A stretch of 58,184 bases of DNA. It comes from a virus. The stretch lies in the IMG/VR virus record IMGVR_UViG_3300045988_095259, positions 1-58,184 of that record. One strand, written 5' to 3'. The stretch's first letter is position 1; every line of letters starts with the position of its first letter. Both the position numbers and the translations under genes were made by a program. This document shows positions 1,151-47,439 of this stretch, piece by piece. Below the pieces are notes generated by a model. The model was not told the DNA's origin and searched no databases. It was given only the letters and a program-made list of their open reading frames with translations.

Positions 1151-4100
1151 ATGGCAAAAGATTACGCTGAAATGCTGCGTAAGGCGCGTGAGGGGTATAC
1201 CGCTGCAACAAGTGGCACTACCTCCGGCGCAAGCAAAAGCGGAGCAAAAGACTATGCAAAGATGCTGCAAGACGCACGGAACAGGGTACAGGGTATCCAG
1301 CCCAATAACAACGCAGACGCTGCACAGAGAGCATCCAATGCGCGTACAGTGGCAGCACGGTACTATACCAACAACCTACAGTACCCTGGAACGGTAAAGA
1401 AAACGCCGGAGCAGCAGTCGCACGACCGTGTTGTATATGCAAGGCAGCCGGCAGTACAGCAGCAGTTGAAGAACCGTGCGGATATGTTGAACATTGGGAA
1501 TGCAATCCAGGCAACGCCGCGCAGCCAGAGCGCAATGTCCGGCGCATCCATGGCACAGTCTCTTGCGCAGAATGTTCCGAACCAGTACGCTCCGGCGGAC
1601 AAGAATGCGCTGCCGAAATCGCTTGCAAACGTGCCGTCCAAGAACGTCGAACAGAAAGGCGCGCTTGAATATATCAGCGAAAAAGGGCAGGAAGCATTCT
1701 ATAACGCAAACCAGTCCATCAATCAGACCATTGAAGCAGCTTCACAAGCCGTGTTCGGTTTCTTTGGGGATGTTGTCAATAACAAGGGAGTATCGCCGGA
1801 GGAAAAACTCAATAGCGGTTTGACGAAAGCGAAAGAGAGATTTGTTGATACATTAGAGCAAAACCGTGCAGAAAATCCGTCGGACAGCACGACGGACGTT
1901 GTACCGGAGTACGAATCCGCACGGAGCAAACCTGCTGTGAAGATTGCTGGAGACGTGAATGCTGCCATGTCCTCCATACTGCCGCGATACATGTTAACCA
2001 TGGGAGCTTCAGGTTTGGGCGCAACCGCAGCAAGCGCAGCGGGAACACTCGGCATGGCAACATCAGCCGCGCAGACATTCCAGAACGCATACAACGAAGC
2101 GAGGAATGACGGTGCTGACGAGAACCAAGCGACGTTATTGGCGGCGAGAAATGCAGCCTCTGATGCAGTGATAGAAAGATTCACAGGTGGTGTTCTCGAA
2201 GGCGGTGCAGGCATTGCAGATTCCGCTATCCAGAAGTATGCCGGGAATGCACTCAATAATTTCTTCCGTTCCAAACCGATGGCAAAAACACTTTCGTATG
2301 TCGTTGCAAAAGGTATTGGCGAAGGAACGGAGGAGGTGCTGCAAGACATTGCAAAAACGGAAGCTAAGAGACTGACGTATGGTTCTGACGAAAAGTTAGA
2401 CCCTAAGTCTCTTGCGTATAGCGGCATTCTGGGTTTTGCTATGGGTTCTTTATTTGCCGGGATGGAAGCTCCGGCGCGGTATTCCGTGTACAAGTCCGAC
2501 TACAATACCGTAAACCTTCTGTCTATTGGCGCGGGAGAAGTTAAGAGCAATGCAGACGCAGATTCGATGGAAGCGACCGCTGATGCAATCATCAACGCCG
2601 CAGACAAAGCGATTGACGAATTGCAGAACGCGAAGCCTTCCGAGGATGTAGACGTAAAAGAGGAAATCTCGCGTCTGAATTATGTAAAAGACGGTGCGCA
2701 AAAAGTCAAGGATACGCTGAACGAGAATAGAGCGGACATCATCGAGCAAAACCTCGCGAAAGAGGATGCTACGCAAAACGCCGTTGACGGCACACCGGAT
2801 ACCATTATTGATGATACCGCAAAGCTTGTCAACACGGTCGCGGACACCATTGAACCTGACAAGAATGCCGTGAACGCTACGATTGACCATGTTGTGCAGG
2901 AAATTCGCAACACGGATGTGCAGCAAATTGTGGCACAGACGGATGTTGAAAAGCAGGAGATCGCCGCAAAGCGAAGCAAGCTCGAAGAAATCGACAAGAC
3001 GCTCCGAAACAACAGAAAAGACGTAGAAGAAGCACGTAAAGACACAAAGAACCAGAGCGACACGCCGGAAGTCGGGACAAAGAAAACTGTCTCTGAACCG
3101 ATTGAACCCACGTACAACGAAGGCAAAGGTGTTGTACAGTATTTCGTTCCCGGCAGAAAAACACCTGTTGCGACAAGTACGCAGTCTGACCTTGACACGC
3201 TGAAGCTGTTTGGTGGGAACACAACCATCAAGCAGGCATACGAAACCCCGCTTATGTCCGGACAAGGTGTAAAAACCGTTCTTGATGCGTATGTGTCGCG
3301 GGGATATGGCGATGTCACTCTGCACGATATGTTCGGTTTCGATGGTGAAAACCAGTTTGAAGCAAATGCGTCTCGCAATCCGAACGCAAAGGTTGTCCCG
3401 GTTGACAGTGCCAATGCAAGCACAGCAGAAGCTACTCCGACAACACTCACTCCGACTGCTGTAACCGAAAAAACCGCAGAAACGAGCGAGAAACCGTTGA
3501 CAACGGAGCAGAAGGATGCTACAATTCCGGTAGAGAACGCAGCTCAGGAACAGACCACGGCAGAACAGGCGAAACCAGAAGAAGCACCGACTCAGGAGGC
3601 ACAGACACCAGTAGCAGAAAGCGAAACAACCACAGACAACAGAACCAAACGCGCCCCGAATGAATTCTCGCTGAAGCACGTTGTAAAAAAGCACTCGAAA
3701 ACCGGAGAAGATTTGGACGTATACCAGATTCCGAAGAACCTTTCAAACAACGAATACGCACGTCTCAAAAAGAATATGGTCGGAATCGGTGGCTACTACA
3801 GCAGCTTTGTGAAAGGTTTCATCGTACCTCGCGACAAAATCGACCGTATTGAATATTTCGCAGATGTGGAGGAAGCAGCACCAGCGCAGAAGGTTGACGC
3901 AACAGCCGCTCCGCAGCAATCGGCAGAGACGGTCACTGCACCACAGCAGCCTGTCGAAAAGGTCGAGAATACCGCTGCTACGCTTCAAACGCCTGAAGAA
4001 CCGCAACCAGAACAGCCAAAGCAACAGGTTTTTCAAGAAACCGCACAGCAGGTTCAGAATAAACCCGCTTCCACGCAGATTTCTGATTACGTTCTCGACA

Positions 4101-7100
4101 AACTGACGAACAACGGAAAAATCACCACACAGGAACTGCAAAGCATTGCCGACAAAGCGCACGGCGGTACTATGGCAGAGGGCAAGTATGATGTGAAAGC
4201 CATGACAGATGCAATGGAACTGGGTGTTAACCGATACCTTATCGATACCATATCCAATGCACAATCTGATTTCAACTCGCCGAAAGCCGAAAAGGCGGTG
4301 GAATCCCTTGACGAAATCACGGAATCCATTCTGAACGCAATCCCTACGCAGACAAAGCGTTCCGAGGAACAGGTGTCGCTACAACAGTTTTCCACTCCAC
4401 CGAACATTGCCTACCTTGCATCTTGGATTGCCAACATTGACAACAAGGATACCGTGCTGGAACCGTCTGCCGGAATCGGCGGTCTTGCGTCCTTCGCGAA
4501 AGCGGATGGTGCTACGGTATACGTGAACGAACTGTCCGACAGCCGTTTGGAGATGCTGAAGCAGCTTCCTTTCGACGGGTTCTACAACGAGAATGCGGAA
4601 CAGATTAACAACATTCTGCCGGATTCCGTTTCTCCGTCCGTGGTACTGATGAACCCGCCGTTCTCATCCACAGGCGGAAGAACGAAAAATTCCACCAAAA
4701 ACGCAATCCCGCACATTGAACAGGCACTTCTCCGCTTGCAGGACGGCGGGCGGCTTGTTGCCATCGTTGGCAAGGGCATGGCAGACGATACGCCTACATT
4801 CCGGAATTGGTACAATGAACTTCGCGAGAAGTACAATATCCGTGCAAACATTGGTATTGACGGAGAGAATTACAAGAAGTACGGCACAACATTCGATGTG
4901 CAGATGCTTGTGATTGACAAGACCGGACCGCAAACCGGAGAGACCATCACAGGCACTTACAAAGACCTGCACGAAATTCCTAAGCTATTGGAGGGAATAA
5001 GAAATGACAGAAGTCGAAAAGATCAACAGCTCGAAACTGGGGAAAGTGGTCGGAAAGATGTTGGAATACATCGGGGAGCCGACGTACCTAAAGAACTCGG
5101 TGTGGCTGATACAATACGTGAGAATGTCAGCGGACATGATTCTGGCGTTCCACTGGGAGTATCCGAACAAGGAAATTCTTCTGGAGCAGGAAGAATTGTT
5201 GCAGATACTGAAAATCCCCAACACGCCGGAATCGTACAGACAGATGATGGAGGAAGTGAACGAGGAAGAAGTGATACAGGAATTCGAGAACGGTCTACAG
5301 ACGCTAAAGGACTACATGAAGAAGTATCCGAACGCGGACGAGGAGATATGGCTGTTCAACGGGGAGATAATGCAGGACACGATATTGACAGTGACGGCAG
5401 CACCGCGAGACGAGATAAGCCGAGAACTCGCGGGGATGAACGACTTGGACGCGGAGATGTAGCGGAATCCGCTAAGCAGTATCATAAGGCGGCATTGGAT
5501 TCATCGGAGGACAACGGTACATACGCTACATACACTCCCGAAAAGCTGAATATCAAGGGAGCGAAGCCCCATCCGACGAAGCTGGTAGAATCTTCTGCAA
5601 TGTCTTCTGTTCACGCGCCTGACCTGCATTACGTGCCAAACCTTGACCGCGATATTATCACAAAGGGCGTTCTGTCCGATGCGCAGCTCGAAGCTGTCAT
5701 GTACGCAGGTCAAGCACACGAAACCGTTCTACCAGATGGGAACAGAAAAGGTTTCCTTATCGGTGACGGTACAGGCGTGGGCAAAGGCAGAGAGATTTCC
5801 GGTATTATTCTCGACAATTTCAACAGCGGCAGGACGAAAGCTGTGTGGGTATCCGTATCATCCGGACTTGTAAACGATGCAAGACGAGACTGGGTTGACC
5901 TTGGTGGGAACGAGAAGGATGTTATAGATTTCTCGAAGGAAAAGGGCAAAAAAAGCGGCATCGGGAGATTTGACAAAGGCATCATGTTCGTCTCGTATGA
6001 CACCTTGAAAAGCGGGAAAAAAGGCGGAGAAACCAATGCGGATATAATCGCGGATTGGTTCGGCAAAGACTTCGATGGCGTGATTGTGTTTGACGAAGCG
6101 CACAAGGCTGGAAATCTGATTGGGGAAAAGACTGGTCGTGGTTCTAAAAAGCCATCACAGAACGCCATTAAAGCCAACGATTTTCAGAACTCCCTTAAAA
6201 ACGCACGTGTTGTGTATGCGTCCGCGACAATCGCCGATAAGGTTTCCGGACTTGCATTTGTATCTCGCCTTGGGTTATGGGGAGATGGAACACAATTCAG
6301 CGGCGTGGACGATTTCGTCGGCAAGATAGGCAGCTCCGGTATGGCAGCAATGGAGCTTGTCGCACGAGACATGAAAGCTACAGGTGCATACATATCCAGA
6401 AACCTGTCATACGATGGTGTTGGATACGATAGGCTTGAACACACACTCACGAAAGACCAGGTCTATATGTACAACACAATGAGCGAAGGTTGGCAGGTCG
6501 TTATGCAGGATGTTGATAAGGCAATGCGTATCACCGGCAATAAAAGCAAGAACGCCGATTCGCAGTTGTGGTCTTCCATGATGCGCTTCTATGATCAGGT
6601 GCTTGTATCCATGTCCATGCCAAGTGTAATCAGCGACATAGAAAAGCAGTTGTCTGACGGGAAGGCATGTGTTGTACAGGTTGTAAACACGCAAGAAGCA
6701 GCACAGGAACGTGCCGTTGAGAAGATGCGCGCGGACGGAAGCGAGGATTATGACAATCTCGACATCACTCCGAGACAGATTCTTGAACAGTACCTATTGA
6801 ACAGTTTCCCTGTCGAACAGTATGAGAAATACGTAGACGAGAACGGCAACGAGCAATCAAGAGTTGCGCGTGATTCAAAGGGACAGCCTATCACCAACAA
6901 GGAAGCTGTGGCAATGCGCGATGCTTTGTTGGAGAGAATAAAAGACATAAGCATTCCGGAAGGCCCAATTGATATGCTTATCAATCACTTTGGCAAGGAT
7001 AGGGTCGCGGAAGTATCTGGCAGAGACAGAAGGTTCATTAACGTAACGGATGAAAACGGAAACATAAAGCGTGTAGAGGATGTACGTGGGGACGGAGCGA

Positions 7101-10100
7101 AGAACGGCAGCCGCGCGGCGAACGACGCAGAAGCAAAGGCGTTTCAGGGCGGTGAGAAAGACATTCTTATATTCTCCGCACAAGCTGGAGGTACTGGCTA
7201 CAGTTATCACGCAGATAAGAGAGCGAAAAACAGCCGGCAGAGAGTTGGGTACATCCTGCAAACTGCTCCAAACTCGCAGCTTTTGATGCAGACGATCGGC
7301 AGAATCCACCGTTCAAACGAAGCGTTCCCGCCGATATACAAACTCGTTTCCACAGACCTTTCCGCGCAAAAGCGTTTTGTGACTTCGTCCGCAAGACGGC
7401 TTGAACAGCTCGGCGCATTGACAAAAGGGCAGCGGCAAGCAAGCGGAGGTATCTTCTCGGCAGACGACAATCTGGAAACGGATTTGTCCAGTGACGCACT
7501 TCTTGCGTTCTTTGATAGGCTTGGACACGGTAGAATCCCCGGCATGGATCCGAAAAAGATACTATCGAAGATGGGATATTCTAAGTATTTCTATGACGAA
7601 TACGGGAACTTCAAACTCAACAAAGACACAGGTTCGAACGTAACTCGCTTCTTAAACCGTATACTTGCGCTCGGTGTAGAGGACGGAGACAGAGTATTTG
7701 ATGCATTCATGGACATTCGTCAGGCATACTACGAAGCCGCAGAAGAAGCTGGAACGCTCGATACTGGTATGGAGAACGTGAAAGCGGATAGGCTGGACAT
7801 TGTGCAGCGAGAAACCGTGTACACGGATGAATCTACCGGAGCGGAAACGCAGTACGTACAAGCCAAAGTGTACAACAAGCCGACTGTTATCCAGACGCTG
7901 GACGATGCAATGGCGTACAGACCGCAATTTCAGGGCATCCGCCGCATGGAGGATGGCAGTGTAAGAGCGGTGTACAGAATCGCAGACCAGACCAATTCAT
8001 TTGGTATTCCGGTAAAGCGGTTCAGATTGCAGGGTGCGAACACGGCTGTATCCAACACCATGAGCGAAAAGAACATGAATGCGAAAACGGAAGAAATTCC
8101 GAAAGCAGAGTGGGAAGCCGTGTGGAAAGAAGCAGTCAAGGATGTTCCGGAATACAACGAAAGCGAACTGCACATGATTACAGGTGCGCTCCTTCCGGTA
8201 TGGAACAAGCTGCCGCAGGATGGAAACATCAAGGCAATGCGTATCACTGCCACGGACGGTACGCAGTATCTCGGCAGAGTGATCCCACCAAAGCAGATTG
8301 ACGCAGTTTTGCGCAGTCTCGGTGCAAGCAAAAGCTCCATCAAGAAGCAGTACACAGGAAAGGAACTGTACTCTGCTGTCATGGACAAGGCGCAGGCAGT
8401 CTCGTTTGATGGCTTGTATGGCGCAACATGGACAGTTTCAAGAAGACGTGTTTCCGGCGAAAATCGTTTGGAGGTAACAGGCAGAAACCTGTTCGCGTTC
8501 AAGGAGAAGTATCCGGACGTTTTCACAGAGACAATCCAGTACAAGCAGCGGTATTTCATCCCGGCAGGAAACAAGGGCGAAGAAATTCTCGGTAAACTTG
8601 CGGAAAAGGGAGTGCGCTCCGTCGGGAACCCAGAACCGGATGATGTGGCGTACTACTCCAAGACACAAGGAAACTGGGGTTCTCGTTCTGGGAAAGACGG
8701 TAAGCTGCCTATGCCGAAGAATATTTCCGACATCTACAAAGCAGCGAAAGAAATTTTCGGTATCTCAATCAACTCGGGCAAGGTTAAGAACGGTGCGGAA
8801 GGTGTGTACAACACCCACGCAAATACCATTCGCACAAGAGTGTACGGTGATTTGCCGACAATCGCGCATGAGCTGGGGCATATGTTCGACAAGCAATACA
8901 AACTTTCCGACATGGAATCCGTGAATGAGCTTGTGAAGAACTACAAGACAGACCTTGAAGAAGCAGGATACAACGAAAGCCTGTATCCGAAAGAAGCCGT
9001 TGCAATGTATTTCGCCGACCTGCTGCATGACGGAGAATACGCACAGCAGAAGAATCCGCAATTCAGCACTGCATTGTTCGATGCAATGAGCGACATTGAC
9101 AAGAACAAACTTGCCGACTTCAAGCAAATGACGGAAAACTACTTCCGTATGGACGATAAAGAGCGGCGCAGAGCGCAGGTGCGGTATCGCTACAAGGATA
9201 AGTCCACGATAGGCAAGGCGAAATTCCAGGTGGAATCCTTCCTGAGAGACCCAAAAGGATACATGGGCAAAAGAAGCCGTGATTTCATGCGCGAAATTTT
9301 TGACGATGTGTACGACCTTAAATATTTCGATGGTGCGCACACATTGGCAATGCGCGAACGGCAGTCCGACAGCATAGCAAAAGGGCGTTTGGAATACGCA
9401 TTCACGGACAACCACGGTAAGGTGATAGGCAAGAGCTTAAAGAGCGTTCTCTATGAGGGCGATATAACCGACCTGAATAAGAAAGACTTTGAAGCATATC
9501 TTATCGCGCGTGTCGCGCTTGATCGTCTGGAAAACAACGAGAAAGACCCGACAGCGGCGTATCTCGTGTACGCAGACAAAGACCTCGGCAGCAAAGAAGC
9601 ACTTGTGAATGCCATTCTCGACTATGAGAGAGAGAACCCGACATTCGCGGATACGGCGAACGGTGTGTACGAATACCGTCACAACCTGCTCACTGTAGCT
9701 GTGGCTTCCGGAATCATCTCCGAAAAACTCGCGGAAAGAATGGAGAAGCAACTGCCGCATTATGTTCCGCTGTCCCGCTATGTTGAGGATAAGAACAATG
9801 TGTCTCCGCTTGCGAAATTCAAGGGTTCCGGCAGGGACATCTATTCCCCGATAGAGAACCTTGCTACACAGACGGCAGCAATTACCAAGGCTATCCAGAA
9901 GAATGAGACGCGCAAGGCACTGTTCAATGCTATTGACACAAACGAGGATATGGGCTTGTGGGCAGAAAAAGTACCGCCGGATAAATTCTTTGACAGGGTT
10001 TCCACGCAGGAGATTCCGGATAAGATAATGAAATTCCTGCAAAGCGGTGGAAACGGCACCATGACTGACGATGATATGGTGGAATTCACGGAAGAACTCA

Positions 10101-12094
10101 TGAAGTACATCGGCGGCAGCGTAGGTATGTGGAAGATCAAGAACAAGCAGAATGATAAAATTGTATCTGTCATGCGAAATGGTGTTCCGGAATACTATGA
10201 GATGCACGACCCTGGACTTGTGAAGGCTCTCGAAAACATGAACCCTCATAAATCGAATGCTTTCATTTCTTTCATGGGTACTGCAACGCGCATTTCCTCC
10301 ACGCTCGTAACAAGCGTATCCCCGCGTTTCGGGCTATTCACAAACCCGATCAGGGACTTCAATACCGGATACATCTTCTCCAAGACAACAAACAATCCGG
10401 TTACGTACACTGTAGACTGGTTCAAGGCGTTCATTGAAGCGGTTCGGAATACGGACGATTTCAAGGCGTATGTTGCAAACGGCGGCGGGTACGTAGGCTC
10501 TATCACATCAAACGCGAACGTGCTGCGCGGCATATACAAGGATATGGTTAAGCCGTCAAGCAAACTGAAAGAGAGTATCAACCCCAGAAATTGGCTTGAA
10601 TCTCTATCCGGTCTTGCAAATGCCATTGACTCTTCTCCGAGATTCGCGGAATACAAACGCGCATTGGAGCAAAACGGCGGTGACGTAATCGCAGCCGTTC
10701 AGGAGGGTATGGATGTTACTGTAAACTTCCGCCAGAGCGGCAGAACCACCAAGGCGATAAACAACCTTGTTATGTTCCACAGCGCGAAAGTGACCTCAAT
10801 AGGGCAGAATGCTGAACGTATCCTGACAAACCGTAGAATACTTGCGAAGTGGCTTACCGTCAATCTTTTGAAGACAGCCATGCACATTGCAGCTCTTGTG
10901 CTGTTCTCGAAGATGTTCGATGAAGGTGACGAGGATACATTGCAGGATTATCAGAACCTTTCCACGTACAACAAGTTTGCGAACTGGTGTTACCCGATTG
11001 GTGACGGTCAATTCCTGCGTGTTCCGAAAGAGACAAACGTAATGGATCTATCGTCCGTGTTGGACGCAACATGGGAACGGTTCGTGCTCGAAAATCCGGA
11101 CGCATTCAAAGATGTGGATGAATATCTCGTTGATGCGCTCATGGTCGCAGACCCGAACCCGCTGAAAGCGGCAGGTGACCTTGTCAGTGACGTCACTTTC
11201 TTCGGCACTGTGCTTGATCTTGCAAAGAACGAAACGTTCACTGGTGCGCCAATCGTCCCGAACGGATACCAGTACAGAGCAGCACCTGAACAGTACAACG
11301 AGAAAACATCCGCGCTTGCAATCAAACTCGGCTCTATCACCGGAATGTCACCGTTCCAGATAGACTACATCATAGACGATACCACCGGATTTGTCGGAGA
11401 TGTCATTCTGAATCTGACAAAGCAAGGCGGAACAACGTTGAAAGATGCGGTCGGGCTGAAAGACACAAGCAAGAAGTCGGTACTGAAAGGAATCCCTGTC
11501 CCCGGTGTGGTGTTGCGCGACAGCGTATATTCCACCGATGTTGTCTCCAACTTCTACGACACAAAGGAGGGATACGACAAGCGTTCCGGTTCTTATGATG
11601 CAGTAGGAGAAGCCGGGGGGGAATACTCGTTCTACGATACATACGGTTCCTACAAGTACCAGAAAATCGCAGACGTGTACAGCAAGGCGAATGCACGTCT
11701 GAAGCTCGAAAAGAACGATGAAGCCAAACGTCTGCTGCGTAGAGCAATGAACACGTTCATTCAGTCCGCGAACGATACGGAAAAGACGAAAACGGATGAA
11801 AGAATTTCCAAACTCGCCGAAAATACAGGCTACAACGTTTCGGATATTGCTCCGTACATCGTTGTACCGAATTCCGTGTCCGGGAAGATGCCGGACGGTG
11901 TTAAGGTTTCGTATGACCTGGACGGCTACGATCTTCTCGACTACTACACCATGTCGCAGTTGTACTTCCAGTATTACTGCAACGACATTCTTAACGGAAC
12001 AGGTTCTGACGAAGAAAAGGCAGAAGCCTTGAAAAAAGCAAAGAGGGAGGTGAAAGAGTATCTAAACGATATATTCTTTGAGAAACTGAAGTAA
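1151..12094 (+). CDS. Giant polyvalent protein (3,647 aa): N6-adenine DNA methyltransferase, strawberry-notch/SNF2-like helicase, zincin metallopeptidase, long helical C-terminal region
   Basis: SD GGAGG at 1141-1145 precedes the ATG at 1151. MTase motifs: FSTPP (4388), LEPSAGIGG (4457), NPPF (4652..4663). Helicase motifs: GDGTGVGKGRE (5762), DEAH (6092..6103), ILIFSAQAGGTGYSYH and QTIGRIHRSN (about 7170-7320). HELGH at 8867..8881 has a downstream E. There are N-terminal Gly/Ala-rich hydrophobic segments and a TM-like segment near 10840-10920. Confidence 0.9.
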   Translation: MAKDYAEMLRKAREGYTAATSGTTSGASKSGAKDYAKMLQDARNRVQGIQPNNNADAAQRASNARTVAARYYTNNLQYPGTVKKTPEQQSHDRVVYARQPAVQQQLKNRADMLNIGNAIQATPRSQSAMSGASMAQSLAQNVPNQYAPADKNALPKSLANVPSKNVEQKGALEYISEKGQEAFYNANQSINQTIEAASQAVFGFFGDVVNNKGVSPEEKLNSGLTKAKERFVDTLEQNRAENPSDSTTDVVPEYESARSKPAVKIAGDVNAAMSSILPRYMLTMGASGLGATAASAAGTLGMATSAAQTFQNAYNEARNDGADENQATLLAARNAASDAVIERFTGGVLEGGAGIADSAIQKYAGNALNNFFRSKPMAKTLSYVVAKGIGEGTEEVLQDIAKTEAKRLTYGSDEKLDPKSLAYSGILGFAMGSLFAGMEAPARYSVYKSDYNTVNLLSIGAGEVKSNADADSMEATADAIINAADKAIDELQNAKPSEDVDVKEEISRLNYVKDGAQKVKDTLNENRADIIEQNLAKEDATQNAVDGTPDTIIDDTAKLVNTVADTIEPDKNAVNATIDHVVQEIRNTDVQQIVAQTDVEKQEIAAKRSKLEEIDKTLRNNRKDVEEARKDTKNQSDTPEVGTKKTVSEPIEPTYNEGKGVVQYFVPGRKTPVATSTQSDLDTLKLFGGNTTIKQAYETPLMSGQGVKTVLDAYVSRGYGDVTLHDMFGFDGENQFEANASRNPNAKVVPVDSANASTAEATPTTLTPTAVTEKTAETSEKPLTTEQKDATIPVENAAQEQTTAEQAKPEEAPTQEAQTPVAESETTTDNRTKRAPNEFSLKHVVKKHSKTGEDLDVYQIPKNLSNNEYARLKKNMVGIGGYYSSFVKGFIVPRDKIDRIEYFADVEEAAPAQKVDATAAPQQSAETVTAPQQPVEKVENTAATLQTPEEPQPEQPKQQVFQETAQQVQNKPASTQISDYVLDKLTNNGKITTQELQSIADKAHGGTMAEGKYDVKAMTDAMELGVNRYLIDTISNAQSDFNSPKAEKAVESLDEITESILNAIPTQTKRSEEQVSLQQFSTPPNIAYLASWIANIDNKDTVLEPSAGIGGLASFAKADGATVYVNELSDSRLEMLKQLPFDGFYNENAEQINNILPDSVSPSVVLMNPPFSSTGGRTKNSTKNAIPHIEQALLRLQDGGRLVAIVGKGMADDTPTFRNWYNELREKYNIRANIGIDGENYKKYGTTFDVQMLVIDKTGPQTGETITGTYKDLHEIPKLLEGIRNDRSRKDQQLETGESGRKDVGIHRGADVPKELGVADTIRENVSGHDSGVPLGVSEQGNSSGAGRIVADTENPQHAGIVQTDDGGSERGRSDTGIRERSTDAKGLHEEVSERGRGDMAVQRGDNAGHDIDSDGSTARRDKPRTRGDERLGRGDVAESAKQYHKAALDSSEDNGTYATYTPEKLNIKGAKPHPTKLVESSAMSSVHAPDLHYVPNLDRDIITKGVLSDAQLEAVMYAGQAHETVLPDGNRKGFLIGDGTGVGKGREISGIILDNFNSGRTKAVWVSVSSGLVNDARRDWVDLGGNEKDVIDFSKEKGKKSGIGRFDKGIMFVSYDTLKSGKKGGETNADIIADWFGKDFDGVIVFDEAHKAGNLIGEKTGRGSKKPSQNAIKANDFQNSLKNARVVYASATIADKVSGLAFVSRLGLWGDGTQFSGVDDFVGKIGSSGMAAMELVARDMKATGAYISRNLSYDGVGYDRLEHTLTKDQVYMYNTMSEGWQVVMQDVDKAMRITGNKSKNADSQLWSSMMRFYDQVLVSMSMPSVISDIEKQLSDGKACVVQVVNTQEAAQERAVEKMRADGSEDYDNLDITPRQILEQYLLNSFPVEQYEKYVDENGNEQSRVARDSKGQPITNKEAVAMRDALLERIKDISIPEGPIDMLINHFGKDRVAEVSGRDRRFINVTDENGNIKRVEDVRGDGAKNGSRAANDAEAKAFQGGEKDILIFSAQAGGTGYSYHADKRAKNSRQRVGYILQTAPNSQLLMQTIGRIHRSNEAFPPIYKLVSTDLSAQKRFVTSSARRLEQLGALTKGQRQASGGIFSADDNLETDLSSDALLAFFDRLGHGRIPGMDPKKILSKMGYSKYFYDEYGNFKLNKDTGSNVTRFLNRILALGVEDGDRVFDAFMDIRQAYYEAAEEAGTLDTGMENVKADRLDIVQRETVYTDESTGAETQYVQAKVYNKPTVIQTLDDAMAYRPQFQGIRRMEDGSVRAVYRIADQTNSFGIPVKRFRLQGANTAVSNTMSEKNMNAKTEEIPKAEWEAVWKEAVKDVPEYNESELHMITGALLPVWNKLPQDGNIKAMRITATDGTQYLGRVIPPKQIDAVLRSLGASKSSIKKQYTGKELYSAVMDKAQAVSFDGLYGATWTVSRRRVSGENRLEVTGRNLFAFKEKYPDVFTETIQYKQRYFIPAGNKGEEILGKLAEKGVRSVGNPEPDDVAYYSKTQGNWGSRSGKDGKLPMPKNISDIYKAAKEIFGISINSGKVKNGAEGVYNTHANTIRTRVYGDLPTIAHELGHMFDKQYKLSDMESVNELVKNYKTDLEEAGYNESLYPKEAVAMYFADLLHDGEYAQQKNPQFSTALFDAMSDIDKNKLADFKQMTENYFRMDDKERRRAQVRYRYKDKSTIGKAKFQVESFLRDPKGYMGKRSRDFMREIFDDVYDLKYFDGAHTLAMRERQSDSIAKGRLEYAFTDNHGKVIGKSLKSVLYEGDITDLNKKDFEAYLIARVALDRLENNEKDPTAAYLVYADKDLGSKEALVNAILDYERENPTFADTANGVYEYRHNLLTVAVASGIISEKLAERMEKQLPHYVPLSRYVEDKNNVSPLAKFKGSGRDIYSPIENLATQTAAITKAIQKNETRKALFNAIDTNEDMGLWAEKVPPDKFFDRVSTQEIPDKIMKFLQSGGNGTMTDDDMVEFTEELMKYIGGSVGMWKIKNKQNDKIVSVMRNGVPEYYEMHDPGLVKALENMNPHKSNAFISFMGTATRISSTLVTSVSPRFGLFTNPIRDFNTGYIFSKTTNNPVTYTVDWFKAFIEAVRNTDDFKAYVANGGGYVGSITSNANVLRGIYKDMVKPSSKLKESINPRNWLESLSGLANAIDSSPRFAEYKRALEQNGGDVIAAVQEGMDVTVNFRQSGRTTKAINNLVMFHSAKVTSIGQNAERILTNRRILAKWLTVNLLKTAMHIAALVLFSKMFDEGDEDTLQDYQNLSTYNKFANWCYPIGDGQFLRVPKETNVMDLSSVLDATWERFVLENPDAFKDVDEYLVDALMVADPNPLKAAGDLVSDVTFFGTVLDLAKNETFTGAPIVPNGYQYRAAPEQYNEKTSALAIKLGSITGMSPFQIDYIIDDTTGFVGDVILNLTKQGGTTLKDAVGLKDTSKKSVLKGIPVPGVVLRDSVYSTDVVSNFYDTKEGYDKRSGSYDAVGEAGGEYSFYDTYGSYKYQKIADVYSKANARLKLEKNDEAKRLLRRAMNTFIQSANDTEKTKTDERISKLAENTGYNVSDIAPYIVVPNSVSGKMPDGVKVSYDLDGYDLLDYYTMSQLYFQYYCNDILNGTGSDEEKAEALKKAKREVKEYLNDIFFEKLK
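5004..5462 (+). CDS. Candidate nested (overprinted) gene in the +1 frame of the giant ORF; acidic 152-aa helical-looking protein
   Basis: ATG 5004 lies two codons after a +1-frame TAA. GGAGGG (4990-4995) sits 8 nt upstream. This is the longest same-strand alternative ORF in the giant gene and the only one with an SD. The product looks amphipathic and globular (MTEVEKINSSKLGKVVGKMLEYIG...), while the main frame here encodes a G/R/D/S-rich linker. Codon usage does not support it (only 6/152 T-ending codons). Confidence 0.4.
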   Translation: MTEVEKINSSKLGKVVGKMLEYIGEPTYLKNSVWLIQYVRMSADMILAFHWEYPNKEILLEQEELLQILKIPNTPESYRQMMEEVNEEEVIQEFENGLQTLKDYMKKYPNADEEIWLFNGEIMQDTILTVTAAPRDEISRELAGMNDLDAEM

Positions 12095-12133: not shown

Positions 12134-12167
12134 GTCTATGCCACTATTTTGCCCGACCGGGTGCAAC

Positions 12168-12296
12168 GAAAAAAGCCCGCCGCAATGACCAACGACAGGC
12201 TTAATTCGAAAGGAGATTTTTATGAAACGAACCTACGGTCACCAAAATGGGAACACGGAAGATTCTCGAACGAAGAGCGGCATCAACTCCCGAACT
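12168..12296 (-). ncRNA. Candidate ~130-nt small RNA bracketed by an orphan promoter and a terminator
   Basis: A near-consensus promoter at 12303..12331 points leftward. A minus-strand-specific hairpin (12174-12201; its G-U pairs form only on this strand) is followed by a U-run (12168-12173). There is no plausible ORF on this strand. The RNA would be antisense to a 27-codon + strand ORF (12222..12305) that has an AAAGGAG SD. Confidence 0.4.
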
Positions 12297-12302
12297 GCTT
12301 AT

Positions 12303-12331
12303 AGTATACCACATTCATCTTGGATTGTCAA
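12303..12331 (-). promoter_or_regulatory. Sigma-70-type promoter (TTGACA, 17 nt, TATACT, with TG extension)
   Basis: The minus strand reads TTGACAatccaagatgaatgtggTATACT. The -35 is at 12326-12331 and the -10 at 12303-12308. Confidence 0.6.
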
Positions 12332-12357
12332 GCAATTGCCAACGGCACTCGCCCTAA

Positions 12358-12830
12358 TGTTTGCAACGTTGTCAACGATTCCTTTTGAACATTGACAAGA
12401 AGCTCCACTTCCCTTTTCTGTTTGCAACGTTGTCTCCAACACTTTCCTCTGCGTTGTCAACGCTTAACGTAACGCTTTCAGTGCTGGACGCAGTGTTGGC
12501 GGCTTGTTTCTCGCTCTCTATCACGTTCCGGTGTTCCTCGATGTAATTCCTCTGCTGCAATGCTTCAATGGCTCTACGGCTTATTTCCTGCTCTCTCTGT
12601 GCCATTTCCGATAGCTGCTGTGTCACATTTCTGTAAGCGGCATCTTTCTCCGCTATACTCGCTTGCAGTGCTGCAATCATTTCATTTTTTGCCGCAAGCT
12701 CCCTTTGCAACGTTGTAACCACTTCATTGACAGTGTTGCAAAGGATGTCATATTCGGCGTTTGTCTTATCGCTGTTTTCGGCATTTGTCTTGCAAGCATC
12801 ATTGTCAATATCGTTGTTTGCAACATTGCC
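12358..12830. repeat. Four dispersed copies of a TTTGCAAC(G/A)TTG motif containing the palindrome CAACGTTG
   Basis: TGTTTGCAACGTTGTC occurs at 12358-12373 and 12419-12434 (identical 16-mers). TTTGCAACGTTGT is at 12704-12716 and TGTTTGCAACATTG at 12815-12828. The copies fall in different reading frames, and one spans the stop codon, so conservation is at the DNA level. Confidence 0.5.
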
Positions 12831-13025
12831 ATCACGCGACACGCTCATATTGCCATCGCTGTCAACGTTGATTTCGCAGCCGTATAGAGCCGCTGCGGCT
12901 ATGTCTATCGTTTTCGGTTTTGTATCCCTTGTGTATTCATCTGCGCCTTTCTTTGTCCTCACAGACTGAACAGAAACGCCCACAAGCCGCGCAAACTCAG
13001 ATATAGGTATGTATACTCCATTCAT
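12372..13025 (-). CDS. HTH plus coiled-coil replication-associated protein (orfX/RepX-like, downstream of rep)
   Basis: There is an N-terminal HTH (ISEFARLVGVSVQSVR), a long heptad-like middle, and a basic/aromatic C-terminal tail (RKGKWSFLSMFKRNR). That matches the accessory gene following repB in lactococcal-type theta replicons. The ATG lies 4 nt after the rep stop. Confidence 0.75.
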   Translation of the reverse strand: MNGVYIPISEFARLVGVSVQSVRTKKGADEYTRDTKPKTIDIAAAALYGCEINVDSDGNMSVSRDGNVANNDIDNDACKTNAENSDKTNAEYDILCNTVNEVVTTLQRELAAKNEMIAALQASIAEKDAAYRNVTQQLSEMAQREQEISRRAIEALQQRNYIEEHRNVIESEKQAANTASSTESVTLSVDNAEESVGDNVANRKGKWSFLSMFKRNR

Positions 13026-13028
13026 GCT

Positions 13029-13805
13029 TCATCCCTCCAGAACGCAATCTCGCGCAACCGCTGACGTTTCGTCTGCATCATAGTCTTTCCGTGCGAGCAT
13101 AAACCGGATTCTCGCGATTGTCTTTCCGCATCGCACAGGGACGGTGTTCACGTTCATATCCGTGAAGCGGTTGATCTCGTCAATAGCAGGGAAAAGTACA
13201 CGCTTCTTGAAGTCGTTGTACATATCATACCCGACAACCTGTAAAAGTTCACGCAGTTCCTCTACGGACGGTTCATACACACCGAGATAGAGATAGCTTT
13301 TAAGAATCTCATAGAGCCGTATCGCGTATTTCGACTTCATTGCCAGCACGAACCCAAGCTGATACGATGTATAGTTCTGTTTCAGGTACAAGAGAAACGG
13401 TTTCAATTCCGGGTCAAACCCAACGACAGCTTTCTTTGGGATAACACGTTCCAATTGTTCCTTACTCATTCCTGCCGTTTCGGGGAAGTACACACTGTTC
13501 AGCCACCTGTGTATCCCCCACCCTCTGCCAAAATCGGCAAGAAATGAATTGTCGGCAAGGCTTTTGAGTATCTGCACGAAGTCACGGAATGTTTTCGCTT
13601 GCTTCTGTATCCCGCATACTTCACATAGGTTCGATAGATCTACCTCATATCCCGAAAGATCGGTATCTTCCGGTCTTATCTTGCTGATGACATACAGCAG
13701 CAATTTCTGTTCCTGCGATGATAGGTCGTATTTCGTTTTTCGTATCAGATCGTTTTGCTTCACAACAAGTGTGTCTCGTTCCTGCTTCCTGTCCTTTTGT
13801 TCCAT
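13029..13805 (-). CDS. Plasmid replication initiator, Rep_3 (RepB-like) family
   Basis: The sequence resembles Rep_3 initiators (KYDLSSQEQKLLLYVISKI, YAIRLYEILKSYLYLG, FPAIDEINRFTD). SD GGAGGGAG. The gene is directly preceded by iterons. Confidence 0.85.
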   Translation of the reverse strand: MEQKDRKQERDTLVVKQNDLIRKTKYDLSSQEQKLLLYVISKIRPEDTDLSGYEVDLSNLCEVCGIQKQAKTFRDFVQILKSLADNSFLADFGRGWGIHRWLNSVYFPETAGMSKEQLERVIPKKAVVGFDPELKPFLLYLKQNYTSYQLGFVLAMKSKYAIRLYEILKSYLYLGVYEPSVEELRELLQVVGYDMYNDFKKRVLFPAIDEINRFTDMNVNTVPVRCGKTIARIRFMLARKDYDADETSAVARDCVLEG

Positions 13806-13862
13806 TGTTTACTCCCTCCATACCAAATGTCCATATAATCCAGTTTTCAACAGACGTTTATA

Positions 13863-13960
13863 GATACTAATTGTCCGCATCAACACATTTTACCGATACC
13901 ATTTGTCCGTATCATCGATACCATTTGTCCGTATCATCGATACCATTTGTCCGCATAAAA
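13863..13960. repeat. Iterons of the theta origin (22-bp unit, about 3.5 tandem copies plus one degenerate copy)
   Basis: GATACCATTTGTCCGTATCATC occurs at 13895-13916 and 13917-13938 (identical). A partial copy is at 13939-13960 and a degenerate copy, GATACTAATTGTCCGCATCAAC, at 13863-13884. Confidence 0.9.
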
Positions 13961-14027
13961 CCGCTTCTTCCTTATTATTATAAATAAGTATAGAAATATA
14001 TAAATATTTAAGACGCGCGCGCGCGCG
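13961..14027. other. AT-rich putative DNA-unwinding region followed by a (CG)7 tract
   Basis: CTTATTATTATAAATAAGTATAGAAATATATAAATATTTAAG is followed by CGCGCGCGCGCGCG (14014-14027), adjacent to the iterons. Confidence 0.6.
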
Positions 14028-14065
14028 ACACAAATAGGCGCAGCACACAGTTTTCAACAGATATT

Positions 14066-14680
14066 TCACTCCGAAAAGCGTCCGCTTCCTGTCTTGTATT
14101 CTTCCACGATCCGATAATACGTGAATCGACTAATACCGAGTTCATTGCACACAGAGGTCATTGTTCTTCTCTTGCTCTGTATATCGCCGTATAGCCTTCC
14201 AAAACGGTCAGGGTCAATCTTAATGCGCGGCTTTCCCTTATACACGCCACGCGCTTTTGCAGCTTCTATGCCGGCTCTTTGGCGTTCTCGGATACTCTTG
14301 TATTCTTTGTCTGCCACATAGGACAGAAGCAGTATGATTATGTCATTGATAACCTCTCCTGTTTCGCCTGTACCATTCAGCATCGGCATATCCAGAACCT
14401 TGATATGCACACCCTTGTCTTTGGTGAGCATCTGCCATTGCGTTACCGTCTCTCTGTAGTTCCTACCGAGACGGTCAAGAGAGGACACAACAACGGTGTC
14501 TCCGGCACGGAGCAGGGAAGTGAGCCGGATATACTCCGGTCTATTGTAATCCTTGCCGCTTGCAAAGTCGATGAATATCCTATCGTCCGGTATGCCCTCC
14601 GCCCTTGCTTCTGCTATCTGCCTGTCTGGATTCTGTTCCTTTGTCGATACTCTCGCATAGTAAAATACGTATTCCTGCAT
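14066..14680 (-). CDS. Small serine recombinase (resolvase/invertase family) with a C-terminal HTH
   Basis: The catalytic N-terminus reads YYARVSTKEQNPDRQ, followed by SLDRLGRN. It has a C-terminal HTH (MTSVCNELGISRFTYYR) and is 204 aa long. Confidence 0.9.
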   Translation of the reverse strand: MQEYVFYYARVSTKEQNPDRQIAEARAEGIPDDRIFIDFASGKDYNRPEYIRLTSLLRAGDTVVVSSLDRLGRNYRETVTQWQMLTKDKGVHIKVLDMPMLNGTGETGEVINDIIILLLSYVADKEYKSIRERQRAGIEAAKARGVYKGKPRIKIDPDRFGRLYGDIQSKRRTMTSVCNELGISRFTYYRIVEEYKTGSGRFSE

Positions 14681-14702
14681 GATTCACACCCCCATAAGAA
14701 TC

Positions 14703-14732
14703 ATTATAGCATTGTAAGTTTATGGTTGTCAA
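14703..14732 (-). promoter_or_regulatory. Sigma-70-type promoter of the recombinase gene (TTGACA, 18 nt, TATAAT)
   Basis: The minus strand reads TTGACAaccataaacttacaatgcTATAAT, about 22 nt upstream of the ATG at 14680 with a GGGGGTG SD. Confidence 0.65.
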
Positions 14733-14745
14733 TTGGCAAAAAGAT

Positions 14746-14781
14746 AAAAGTGTATCATTTGGGTGGTAATGATACACTTTT
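14746..14781 (-). terminator. Perfect 13-bp inverted repeat; probable terminator closing the cargo cluster
   Basis: AAAAGTGTATCAT (14746-14758) pairs with ATGATACACTTTT (14769-14781) across a 10-nt spacer. On the minus strand it is followed by AUCUUUUUG. It could alternatively be a recombinase site. Confidence 0.5.
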
Positions 14782-34429: not shown

Positions 34430-35809
34430 TTACCTCCTGACGTGTGTGGGAATGCGGTTTTTGCTGAATACCGCCTGTTTGTGCTTGTCTATCATGATTT
34501 CCTCCGGTGTCCGAGTGTCCGGCTCTCTCGGAACACTGGCGCGAGACACACAAAAATATCGCAGCGCGTCCGGAAGATGCGTGACTTCGTGCGGCTCTTT
34601 TGCCGCGTCGTTGCAGCTTTTTTCGTCCGCCTTGATTGTCGAAACGCACCGGATGAGGTTTTTGCACGTTGAGAATATCCGCAAGCGCGCCGTTTTGCCC
34701 TCACCGGAAGGATCGGGAACAGGCTTGAGCCGCTCATGCACCTGCATCCACCCTTGCACACGGTCATTTGATGCCTTGGTGAGGTATACGCCGTTGTCCA
34801 TGTATATCTCTGCCATTGTTCGCCCTGTGTCCTTTGTCCTGCTCCACATATCCGGCGGGGCATAGGTGATATACTCCTGTTCGCGCGGCTCTGCGTCGCG
34901 AATCGCTTGTGCGGCTTGTGAAACGATAAGCCCCGATTGATAGACCTCGCCAATCACATAGGCGGTATCGTGCGTGTCTATGGCGATATACAGGCAAGCC
35001 AGCGCATCCAGACCGTAGTCTATCGCGCGGACGATCTCCCAGTGATCGGGTATGGGGAATGGCGAAACCACGTGAATATCGCGGGAAAATTGATCGAAGA
35101 ACACCGCTCCGTCCACTCCCCATTCGCCCAGACCTGCCACTTTGTAACGCTCTGGGCGCGTCTTGCGCATATCCTCAAACGCCTGTAGGTCGGTCTCGGA
35201 CAGCCACGGATTATCCTTGTAGGTCGTAGTCATGGGAAGCACATTTTCGTGCGGTTCGTCAAAAAATCGCGCCTTAATCCAGGTCGAATCGCTCCACGGA
35301 TTGAACACCATAATTACCCTCTTAAAGTATCCGACCGGGAGCTCACCTCTAATCGACTCGTCCAGCATATTGAAATCGTCCTCAGAATCGACCTCGAATG
35401 CCTCCTCTATGAACATCCAGCACAGAACGCCAGTTGAAACGGATACAGAAGTGACTTTAGCAGCGTTATCCAGACCCTTGAAGATGATCTTCTGCCCTGT
35501 CGGCTTGTAAACCATCAGCAGCGGGGACGTCTTGCTTATCGGATAGTCCCAATAATCCTCCACGTGCAGCCGTTTAATTGCCCATATCAGGTCAGCACAA
35601 ACGCTATCACGCATCGTATCAAGCACCTTACGAACAACAAGAGTGTTGGCAAGCGGATAACGCATCATCTGCGAAATTATCCATAGAGCAGCGTGTTTGG
35701 ATTTGCCGGATCCGCGAGAACCCTTGCAGACAACATATGTTTTGTTTGTCCGCCAGAAGCACTTGTATGCCGGAGCGGTTATCTCCGACAGTTTGACTGT
35801 GTCAGACAT
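34430..35809 (-). CDS. terL: Terminase large subunit
   Basis: The Walker A is VVCKGSRGSGKSK. WMFIEEAF is Walker-B-like. The C-terminal half is nuclease-like. ATG 35809 is preferred; the ORF-track TTG is at 35815. Confidence 0.92.
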   Translation of the reverse strand: MSDTVKLSEITAPAYKCFWRTNKTYVVCKGSRGSGKSKHAALWIISQMMRYPLANTLVVRKVLDTMRDSVCADLIWAIKRLHVEDYWDYPISKTSPLLMVYKPTGQKIIFKGLDNAAKVTSVSVSTGVLCWMFIEEAFEVDSEDDFNMLDESIRGELPVGYFKRVIMVFNPWSDSTWIKARFFDEPHENVLPMTTTYKDNPWLSETDLQAFEDMRKTRPERYKVAGLGEWGVDGAVFFDQFSRDIHVVSPFPIPDHWEIVRAIDYGLDALACLYIAIDTHDTAYVIGEVYQSGLIVSQAAQAIRDAEPREQEYITYAPPDMWSRTKDTGRTMAEIYMDNGVYLTKASNDRVQGWMQVHERLKPVPDPSGEGKTARLRIFSTCKNLIRCVSTIKADEKSCNDAAKEPHEVTHLPDALRYFCVSRASVPREPDTRTPEEIMIDKHKQAVFSKNRIPTHVRR

Positions 35810-36305
35810 ACGCAATGCCTCTAACTATCCTTCCGACCGCAGCGTTTGTCAATCCGTATCTGCTTGCGATAGCCACCGTTCCGTGTTCGCAGCTGCCACG
35901 CACATACTCAGCTCTTATTGCTTCAGCTTGCGCTTGCGTGAGTTTGGCGTTTCCATTGGCAGTACCGCGAACCGGTTTTTTAAGATTGTGTGCATATGCG
36001 TGTAACATCTGCTGGTGTCGGTCGCACCACTCCAGGTTATCTACAGCATTGTTTGTTTTGTCTCCGTCCTTGTGATTAACAGTTTCGTATCCATCCGGGT
36101 TTGGGATAAACGCCTCTGCGACAACTCTGTGGTAACGTATCCAGACGGATTTGCCGCCAACTTGCATCGCTGTGAATAAATATCCATCTTTGTTCCGTTT
36201 TGGAGTCATTTTGCGCATTTTGCCGCTCACCGCACTGTAAATATCCCCGTTTTTGCTCACGTAATACCTTCCGCCAGAGCCAGCAATCTCAACAACATCC
36301 ACCAT
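35802..36305 (-). CDS. HNH homing endonuclease inserted between terS and terL
   Basis: The N-terminus is NUMOD4-like (YYVSKNGDIYS). The HNH region is VNHKDGDKTNNAVDNLEW. There is a C-terminal HTH-like module. SD GGGGAG. Confidence 0.85.
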   Translation of the reverse strand: MVDVVEIAGSGGRYYVSKNGDIYSAVSGKMRKMTPKRNKDGYLFTAMQVGGKSVWIRYHRVVAEAFIPNPDGYETVNHKDGDKTNNAVDNLEWCDRHQQMLHAYAHNLKKPVRGTANGNAKLTQAQAEAIRAEYVRGSCEHGTVAIASRYGLTNAAVGRIVRGIAYV

Positions 36306-36311
36306 CACTTG

Positions 36312-37732: not shown

Positions 37733-37812
37733 CGCAGAGTGACCCGCTCCGGCGGGGTAATGCACACGGCACACGCCGTCCGGTCACAAGTCCGGAAGAA
37801 AGGAACGAAACC

Positions 37813-39212: not shown

Positions 39213-39413
39213 ATGACTTACACCACCGAGCAGAAAGAACGTGCAATCGAAATCGCAGAGCAGATCAAGGCAGCGGATACATGGGACATGGAAGCGCTCA
39301 AAGAATTGTGCGAACTGGCAGGCATGAGCGAAGAGTGGGCAAACACCGACGGCGATACCTTTGAGAGCGTTGCATACGCGGCAGCCGATAAGCTCGGCGT
39401 GGAGATCCTGTGA
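39213..39413 (+). CDS. Small, strongly acidic 66-aa protein
   Basis: SD AAGGAG. The product begins MTYTTEQKERAIEIAEQIKAADTWDMEALKELCELAGMSEEWANTDGDTFE. Confidence 0.7.
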   Translation: MTYTTEQKERAIEIAEQIKAADTWDMEALKELCELAGMSEEWANTDGDTFESVAYAAADKLGVEIL

Positions 39414-40466: not shown

Positions 40467-40853
40467 TTATTGCATACTCTCCACTATCGCAGCAACTGCG
40501 TCCAGCTTTTTCCGGTCGAGCTTGTCCAGGCGGATCACAACATCCCTGTATCGATCATCCGTCTGCATCCGAAGGGCTATATCAGCTATCGCCTGGTTAC
40601 GCACCGTTTCCGGATCCACATCCACTGTCATTGGCACATCGTATCCCATCAGCCACAGAGCATTAACGTCCAATGTCTTTGATATTTTTTCTATCGCAGC
40701 TTGTTTGGGATTCATTTTCCCAGATACATACAGAGATATAGCACCTCTTGGAAGTCCACTATCCCTCACTAAATCAATCTGTTTCATCCCTCTTGCGTTC
40801 ATGACCGTTCTGAGCCGTTCCGCTGTCGTAGCAACTCGTTCCACTTTTAACAT
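40467..40853 (-). CDS. CI-like repressor (XRE-family HTH, 128 aa)
   Basis: The HTH reads ERLRTVMNARGMKQIDLVRDSGLPRGAISLYVSGK. It is divergent from a Cro-like gene. ATG 40853 was chosen because a near-consensus promoter lies inside the longer ORF-track version. Confidence 0.85.
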   Translation of the reverse strand: MLKVERVATTAERLRTVMNARGMKQIDLVRDSGLPRGAISLYVSGKMNPKQAAIEKISKTLDVNALWLMGYDVPMTVDVDPETVRNQAIADIALRMQTDDRYRDVVIRLDKLDRKKLDAVAAIVESMQ

Positions 40854-40869
40854 CCCCCTCTTTAGCTTT

Positions 40870-40898: not shown

Positions 40899-40940
40899 CA
40901 TCATTTTTATTATTTTTCTTGTCTTTTTTTCGAAATTGTA

Positions 40941-40969: not shown

Positions 40970-41013
40970 AGCATCAGTTCCGAAACCGAAATCATTTCAA
41001 GGAGGTGATAACA

Positions 41014-47438: not shown

Positions 47439-47439
47439 A

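Follow-up and report, generated by a model that had tools for sequence, protein, structure and literature searches.

Phage-plasmids are increasingly regarded as a major and under-detected class of mobile elements, and P1 and other Rep_3-carrying phages of this kind are temperate, lack an integrase and carry a plasmid initiator. The replicons concerned are well described: F (RepE/ori2), pSC101, R6K (pi), pPS10 (RepA) and P1 (RepA/oriR) each combine a two-winged-helix initiator with phased direct repeats beside an AT-rich tract, and in Rep_3 theta replicons extra iterons lie over the rep promoter or leader. Little is known about phage-plasmids in gut communities (PMC11652158). Here we describe a locus with the same organisation in the viral genome IMGVR_UViG_3300045988_095259, analysed over its whole length of 58,184 nucleotides (hereafter the window). 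Given the arrangement of its genes and sites, we think it likely that positions 12325-14781 constitute a self-contained plasmid-maintenance cassette of an integrase-less temperate phage, whose prophage would be kept as a circular plasmid. The original prediction had proposed a complete Rep_3 iteron theta replicon of the pCI305 type within a probable phage-plasmid. Replicon and phage-plasmid are now supported by an integrase slot, by co-variation of Rep and iterons and by a deletion variant; the pCI305 assignment has not survived.

Read 5' to 3' on the minus strand, the cassette consists of a terminator, a promoter, a recombinase gene, the origin, rep and a gene for a winged-helix-turn-helix (wHTH) protein (Table 1). 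Profile searches bore out the proposed Rep_3 initiator, because Rep matches Pfam Rep3_N (8.5e-32) and Rep3_C (2.2e-13; PF01051 and PF21205), both above gathering scores; its best NCBIfam hits lie far under the cut-offs. A profile built from Rep and its homologs matched F-plasmid RepE (1rep) in the PDB at 6e-23 over profile positions 5-227, which is nearly full length, and further matched R6K pi and pPS10 RepA. Homologs with both domains number 178 at E <= 1e-10, the closest being 74-95% identical and residing on contigs of up to 57.3-59.0 kb. Judged by these profiles, Rep is a bona fide WH1+WH2 initiator. A genome-contig search with the single Rep protein confirmed no relative. When the Rep alignment was used instead, the nearest genomic relatives, at 36-42% identity, came from metagenome-assembled genomes (MAGs) of Butyricicoccus, Acutalibacteraceae, Oscillospiraceae and Lachnospiraceae. 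The host is probably an uncultured member of the gut-type Clostridia, and because no relative exceeded 42% identity in that search, it can be named no more closely than Clostridia-like MAGs.

Directly in front of rep lie 22-bp iterons. Their position had been predicted correctly; their number had not, as there are three full tandem copies and two spaced, degenerate ones instead of 3.5 copies. A repeat search placed the five starts at 13894, 13916 (identical), 13938 (86%), 13862 and 13818 (77% each), with start-to-start spacings of 22, 22, 32 and 44, and TRF reported a 22-nt period with 2.7 copies and 100% matches over 13894-13953. A 20-mer of the iteron unit, allowing up to three mismatches, occurs four times here and zero times in 100 shuffles; the array lies far beyond chance. 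The spacing of iteron 5 (+42 to +45) is kept in the window, in L003 and in the group of L005, and this copy is a presumed site of autorepression. No inverted repeat was found by the repeat search between the iterons and the rep start codon. The AT-rich tract and the (CG)7 run that had been noted beyond the iterons are both present. The former keeps its position in all relatives and is a candidate DNA-unwinding element; a conserved TATAAT-like box marks its end, and a promoter scan detected a promoter-like TTTATA-16-TATAAT at 14004..13977. An alternating pyrimidine-purine tract of 13-19 nt takes the place of the (CG)7 run in 8 related elements, with CA/TG-for-CG substitutions that preserve the alternation. 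This Z-DNA-prone tract has the same position in the window, L001, L003, L004, L005, L009, L010 and L011 and is missing from the ~35-kb type represented by L007. Conceivably, it could be a supercoil-sensing part of origin firing next to the unwinding element; to our knowledge, no conserved alternating GC tract by the AT-rich region is known from the F, pSC101, R6K, pPS10 or P1 origins.

The origin further contains the only two exact occurrences of the 14-mer TCTGTTGAAAACTG in the window. It fits the DnaA-box consensus TTWTNCACA at 8/9 positions, no exact box being present in this origin, and it is kept in relatives, of which L004 alone has a perfect box (TGTGGAAAA, complement TTTTCCACA). The two motifs may act as DnaA boxes; in P1 oriR, DnaA boxes lie at both edges. 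With phased direct repeats beside rep that co-vary with the initiator, and with an AT-rich region adjoining them, the element is by its sequence organisation a Rep_3 iteron-type replicon. It differs from the described theta replicons of this class in that it has no sequence-level closeness to them and no adjacent par operon.

The relatives provide several natural experiments: integrase and replicon as alternatives in the same slot, a swap of Rep and iterons within otherwise identical DNA, and a precise deletion variant. We compared about a dozen loci from ENA, Logan and IMG/VR, which share a synteny of resolvase, origin, rep and wHTH gene followed by a convergent giant polyvalent gene. In an alignment of 11 origins, the geometry is conserved, with iteron spacings of 22, 22, 32 and 42-45, and the iteron core CAWWTGGTA is invariant. 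The 5' tetranucleotide, by contrast, is shared by the iterons of any one element but changes from element to element (ACGG/GCGG, CAAT, CCAT, GTGG or GGGG). The window and L003 are 94-100% identical in recombinase gene, AT-rich tract and downstream gene and for several kb to either side, and their identity drops to 60-77% in one block that extends from the first iteron (~13960) to about Rep residue 197 (~13213). This pattern marks a swap of specificity alleles, in which initiator and binding sites were exchanged together, as is expected of replicon-specificity (incompatibility) alleles and of incompatibility-driven diversification. A parallel is found at the P1 replicase locus, where P1-g1 (IncY) and p0111 carry alternative alleles (PMC7969092). 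Elements of the GTGG type (L005, L010, L011, L092 and L093) also have an orphan CCAT-type iteron, which is the specificity of L004, ~274 nt upstream of rep and beyond the AT-rich region; it may have been left behind by allele exchange or act in cross-incompatibility.

The late gene at 15465-15890, upstream of the cassette, has about 500 relatives in IMG/VR. We took the best 80 loci, of which 69 had at least 2.5 kb of downstream sequence, and found a tyrosine integrase ~1 kb downstream of the shared late gene in 39 of the 69, which is the slot of the cassette in the window. Pfam Phage_integrase was confirmed in three representatives, one of which then has an S24-type repressor. These integrase-carrying phages are more distant than the cassette-bearing relatives and share with the window two late genes upstream of the cassette. 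A closer relative, L095 (IMGVR_UViG_3300012992_000104), is 95-96% identical on both sides and is without exactly 14729..12572. This 2.16-kb deletion runs from the recombinase -35 box to the middle of the downstream gene, so that recombinase gene, origin and rep are lost along with two thirds of that gene; at the junction (near 4030..4038 of L095), the breakpoints share a microhomology of about 5-9 nt that includes ATTGA. The cassette is therefore separable from virion genes. Taken together, its position in the integrase slot and the L095 deletion define a discrete, exchangeable and virion-dispensable module in the lysogeny region, and this module character is the best available argument for plasmid maintenance of the prophage. 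The three genes also recur together in another type of phage, ~35 kb in size, where they lie beside its cI/cro genes and include a more divergent Rep (52% identity); related copies of the downstream gene are found on contigs of about 34-37 kb.

What kind of phage carries this module? The ends of the window form an exact 75-nt direct repeat, giving a circular assembly of 58,109 bp in which host flank is absent, and the inspected relatives are contigs of 56.7-59.0 kb, again with no host flanks. Encoded structural and packaging proteins are TerS, an HNH endonuclease, TerL, portal, major capsid protein and tail fibre, with an M23 peptidase in addition and an SU10 adaptor match slightly under the Pfam cut-off; genes for Gam, SSB and dUTPase are present as well. 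The predicted cI/Cro/antirepressor switch was recovered as an HTH_3 repressor, a Cro-like gene and Ant. A full set of phage functions (packaging, capsid, tail, lysis and lysogeny switch) is thus combined with a plasmid replication initiator, homologs of which occur in >5000 plasmid records. Our domain scans (Pfam and PHROGs) covered ORFs of at least 90 aa that were gene-like by length and strand, a selection from the ORF list. Among these scanned ORFs there was no tyrosine or large serine integrase, hence no chromosomal integration module, and neither a transposase nor a partition NTPase; the precomputed Pfam hits of relatives agree on all three points, as does the original prediction for integrase and partition NTPase. 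A Mu-like transposition lifestyle, considered for the Gam homolog, was rejected, as no transposase was found among the scanned ORFs.

Since TerL is <38% identical to any deposited phage, and since the Rep_3 homologs encoded by Clostridioides phiSemix9P1 and Burkholderia KS14 are 22-31% identical to the window Rep, the element would represent a new family of a kind, the phage-plasmid, that is already known. A DNA-level search with 12100-14100 against phage and plasmid collections gave no match, and neither did the major capsid protein in PLSDB. The window defines a widespread uncultured family of temperate phages, probably of Clostridia, with two genome sizes of about 57-59 kb and about 35 kb, in which a compact resolvase/Rep_3/wHTH cassette stands in place of an integrase; clustering at 90% identity yields >100 protein clusters for the downstream gene alone. 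With a length of about 2.5 kb, the minimal candidate replicon could serve as the basis of vectors for gut Clostridia that resist genetic manipulation.

Several observations weigh against plasmid maintenance of the prophage. TerL belongs to the Terminase_3 kind, which we take as a sign of headful packaging, and because headful virion DNA would assemble as a circle too, circularity does not discriminate; the circular assembly and the genome-length contigs are equally expected from headful-packaged virion DNA. One homolog cluster, P0158, includes a contig of 76.9 kb, which might be a concatemer or an integrated copy, with its inspected places at 56.8-56.9 kb. No ParA-, ParM- or TubZ-type protein and no recognised toxin-antitoxin or addiction system for a 58-kb replicon was found among the scanned ORFs, and the window differs in its lack of ParAB or another partition NTPase, and in its uncultured host, from P1-like phage-plasmids. 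Partition and toxin-antitoxin systems are expected in large low-copy phage-plasmids, although partition is not obligatory (PMC7969092, PMC11652158). Both cumulative GC skew and the orientation of genes centre on ~41 kb, close to the phage-type replication module, and the Rep_3 origin is located at the skew maximum, a terminus-like point of transcription convergence; the genome architecture has therefore not been shaped by the Rep_3 origin. GC skew as evidence of origin use was dropped, being confounded by gene orientation. Finally, searches of 185,579 species-representative genomes and of PLSDB found no close relative.

Some of these points would suit a scenario whereby the Rep_3 cassette is a captured small plasmid, present as passenger or cointegrate, or else an auxiliary or early phage origin that serves infection or a carrier state without stable plasmid lysogeny. 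A small-plasmid origin of the cassette is plausible because Rep relatives at 30-42% identity reside mostly on plasmid-like contigs of 2-15 kb, some of them with a resolvase; yet the cassette is conserved over >100 homolog clusters and in two phage types. Its deletability and its place at the convergence point and skew maximum, as well as the missing partition or addiction system, would fit this scenario, but the cassette stands where related temperate phages have their integrase and has its own insulated, constitutive-looking promoter. The swap of Rep and iterons is not unique to plasmids either, given that lambdoid O/iteron pairs show specificity swaps too. An auxiliary origin, on the other hand, would be added to a genome that already contains a complete phage-type initiator, loader and internal origin, and a temperate switch without integration function needs some means of persistence. 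On balance, we regard a captured plasmid or auxiliary origin as unlikely, and favour maintenance of the prophage as a plasmid.

The small serine recombinase of resolvase/invertase type was identified as predicted. Its translation shows the catalytic motif YARVSTKEQ, and it is composed of a catalytic domain of ~145 aa and a short HTH. As the only recombinase found in the genome, and with a catalytic domain that NCBIfam finds weakly similar to XisF and IS607-type enzymes, this 204-aa protein might conceivably integrate the prophage, in which case Rep would be used for transient replication only. Phage serine integrases, however, carry a large C-terminal domain, which is missing here. Moreover, the gene always lies directly upstream of ori-rep in relatives, and the two stay together even in L007, of the unrelated ~35-kb phage type; the inspected relatives are without host flanks and near genome length. 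Integration by this enzyme is thus distinctly improbable, and its presumed role is the resolution of plasmid multimers. P1 has a dimer-resolving recombinase as well, Cre (PMC7969092), which is a tyrosine and not a small serine enzyme.

Upstream of the recombinase gene, the stem of the terminator is kept in relatives by compensatory changes (GTGTATCATT/AATGATACAC versus GTGCCGTA/TACGGCAC) and is followed by a T-run, and it is predicted to insulate the cassette from the upstream late operon. The same palindrome (14746-14781) was considered as a res site of the recombinase and rejected, as the compensatory stem changes and the T-run fit a terminator. Both hexamers of the recombinase promoter are conserved in five relatives. 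A CAATTG-type palindrome upstream of or overlapping the -35 sequence TTGACAA is common to this promoter and to that of a predicted small RNA described below (14715..14745 and 12325..12345, both minus strand), and may be a common operator.

Could the replicon instead belong to the lactococcal pCI305/pWV02 family, as its original label implied, and have entered a phage from there? The order of parts is alike, since pSMA198 and SK11 plasmid 1 also have an AT-rich tract, 22-bp direct repeats, rep and a co-oriented downstream HTH gene. The family is characterised by the combination of Rep_3 with the L_lactis_RepB_C domain (PF06430; PMC4293149). This domain is without a match in the window Rep at E up to 0.1, whereas a lactococcal control scored 5.5e-59. 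The window Rep is also shorter (258 versus ~386 aa), is 27% identical to lactococcal RepB over 148 aa, and has its nearest relatives in a different host clade, the Clostridia. The lactococcal origin contains 3.5 copies of a 22-bp repeat and two inverted repeats over the promoter and ribosome-binding site (RBS), in contrast to the five direct iterons of the window. In an hhalign comparison, the downstream protein aligned with lactococcal OrfX (SK11 plasmid 1) over 22 HTH residues only (probability 72%), and tblastn found no match for it in 72,556 plasmids or in the phage collection. The failed PF06430 and OrfX tests refute membership, leaving this the least credible of the explanations considered, and what the element shares with lactococcal replicons is the layout common to Rep_3 iteron replicons in general.

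A separate phage-type replication module had been predicted as well and was confirmed by PHROGs. Its initiator gene contains an origin-like structure at 46803-46937 (plus strand) with three repeats of 22-bp period that are rich in TTGCAA (46803-46875), followed by an AT-rich stretch (46874-46937) that includes the third most AT-rich 45-mer of the window (46893-46937). This recalls the lambda ori, which lies within gene O. The genome would thus possess two replication modules, each with its own iteron origin, similar to P1, which separates lysogenic and lytic replication as oriR and oriL.

How might the cassette maintain the prophage? From established knowledge of the Rep_3 plasmids F, pSC101, R6K and pPS10 and of P1 oriR, we envision a unit that is insulated by its terminator, is served by its own promoters and comprises the recombinase, the iteron origin, the Rep_3 initiator and a wHTH/coiled-coil protein whose presumptive sites lie in a cluster. 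Rep monomers would bind the three phased 22-bp iterons and, assisted by host DnaA on the DnaA-box-like motif at either flank, would open the 89% AT tract and bring in the host helicase, so that theta replication can start. Binding of Rep to iterons 4 and 5, over the 5' leader and the Shine-Dalgarno sequence, might repress rep, and iteron handcuffing might limit copy number. The recombinase would resolve dimers, and the downstream protein might regulate or stabilise the replicon. During lysogeny, the CI-type repressor would silence the lytic genes, and the prophage would persist as a circular plasmid by means of the cassette; upon induction, replication would pass to the lambda-O-like initiator and the DnaC-like loader with their internal origin.

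Table 1. Positions of the cassette elements and of other principal features in the window
Feature	Position	Strand	Remarks
IMGVR_UViG_3300045988_095259	1-58,184		viral genome under study (window)
Intrinsic terminator, hairpin and T-run	14746..14781	-	terminator scan
Recombinase promoter, sigma-70 type	14703..14732	-	TTGACA, 18 nt, TATAAT; 12/12 matches, TG extension
Small serine recombinase (resolvase/invertase type), 204 aa	14066..14680	-	Pfam Resolvase 1.1e-28
TCTGTTGAAAACTG copy 1, DnaA-box-like	14048..14061	-	outer origin edge
(CG)7 alternating pyrimidine-purine tract	14013..14027		borders AT-rich region
AT-rich tract	13969..14013		88.9% AT; most AT-rich 45-mer of the window
Three tandem 22-bp iterons	13894..13959	-	two identical, third 86%
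Iteron 4 (77%)	13862..13883	-	32 bp past iteron 3; +32 spacing kept in the ten 56.7-59 kb relatives examined
TCTGTTGAAAACTG copy 2, DnaA-box-like	13841..13854	-	between iterons 4 and 5
Iteron 5 (77%)	13818..13839	-	abuts/overlaps rep Shine-Dalgarno sequence GGAGGG
rep, Rep_3-family (WH1+WH2) initiator, 258 aa	13029..13805	-	
wHTH/acidic linker/coiled-coil/basic-tail protein gene, 217 aa	12372..13025	-	'orfX' position; translationally coupled to rep
TTG(A/C)CAA heptamer cluster	12325..12465		includes TTGCAACGTTGT and CGTTGTCAACG; straddles stop codon of the 217-aa gene
Lysogeny switch	40467..42659		HTH_3 repressor (-), Cro-like HTH (+), 177-aa ORF, Ant antirepressor (+); PHROGs, Pfam HTH_3
HTH_3 repressor	40467-40904	-	divergent from Cro-like gene
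Phage-type replication module	46551..48243	+	replisome-organizer/O-like (lambda-O/DnaD-like) initiator and DnaC-like loader; PHROGs 8e-49, 3e-51

The gene that follows rep has its Shine-Dalgarno sequence inside the last rep codons. Its description as an HTH/coiled-coil gene holds, its description as orfX-like does not, given the 22 residues that align. An AlphaFold2 model of the 217-aa protein (from a 23-sequence alignment; mean pLDDT 78) shows a winged HTH at the N-terminus, modelled with confidence (residues 5-64), then a disordered acidic linker, a long helix (85-181) and a disordered tail, which in the alignment ends in a conserved basic, partly hydrophobic motif, F..F.RKK. No Pfam, NCBIfam or PDB-sequence family was matched above threshold, with coiled-coil noise and a sub-threshold MerR HTH as the only signals, and Foldseek with the model returned nothing significant (E >0.6, probability <=0.51). 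Its weak top matches to the N-terminal domain were MerR-type wHTH proteins (BldC, NmlR, RacA and the RdfS excisionase). The small N-terminal MerR-like winged HTH is thus a resemblance only to RacA, BldC and other MerR-type proteins; RacA has a winged HTH followed by a long coiled coil, as in the model. Homologs of the protein form 114 clusters (90% identity), all metagenomic and mostly on contigs of 55-60 kb or 34-37 kb.

Around the end of this gene, TTG(A/C)CAA heptamers are clustered. The 12-mer TTGCAACGTTGT has three exact copies, at 12361, 12422 and 12705, which span no more than 360 bp and fall in different reading frames; the remainder of the 58 kb has none. In eight relatives, the heptamer is enriched about ten-fold in the gene plus 150 nt, with four or five copies across the stop codon; P-values for this are only indicative, as the motif was picked after seeing the window and the relatives are homologous. 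The cluster is a candidate cis site (an operator, a centromere-like site or a res site), and the heptamers may be bound by the wHTH protein or by the recombinase. Speculatively, protein and cluster together might form an NTPase-free device for segregation or anchoring, which would tether the plasmid to a cellular landmark in a RacA-like manner and possibly ensure forespore capture in a Clostridia host. We consider this doubtful; if true, it would explain how a 58-kb phage-plasmid manages without ParA, ParM or TubZ.

The 277-nt gap past the wHTH gene contains a near-consensus minus-strand promoter, TTGACA-17-TATACT with a TG extension (12163..12331, minus strand), and a strong terminator (12202..12173) ~100 nt beyond it; the predicted product is a ~130-nt small RNA that is structured (folding z = -2.5). 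This RNA would be antisense to the Shine-Dalgarno sequence and the 5' part of a 57-aa plus-strand ORF (12222..12395), which has a strong RBS and a hydrophobic C-terminus, so that the layout is type-I toxin-antitoxin-like. The region is 99% identical in L003, and other relatives have a different 58-aa gene.

On the far side of this gap, the convergent polyvalent gene (1151..12094, plus strand) encodes a 3647-aa protein with an AAA_34/Helicase_C_4 helicase of Strawberry-notch type (Sbno), an LPD38 domain and a methylase-like NPPF motif; its counterparts in relatives have additional PBECR3/5, LPD3 or ART-PolyVal domains. It resembles injected anti-restriction proteins of the P1 DarB type. A Twister-P5 ribozyme (Rfam; 37733..37795, plus strand; 48.3 bits against a gathering score of 37.6, E = 5e-7) is located where the terminase genes and the early genes of the plus strand diverge. 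The two HNH endonuclease genes are located at 35802..36308 (minus strand) and 39410..40231 (plus strand), and one of them is positioned between TerS and TerL, as is typical of HNH-assisted packaging.

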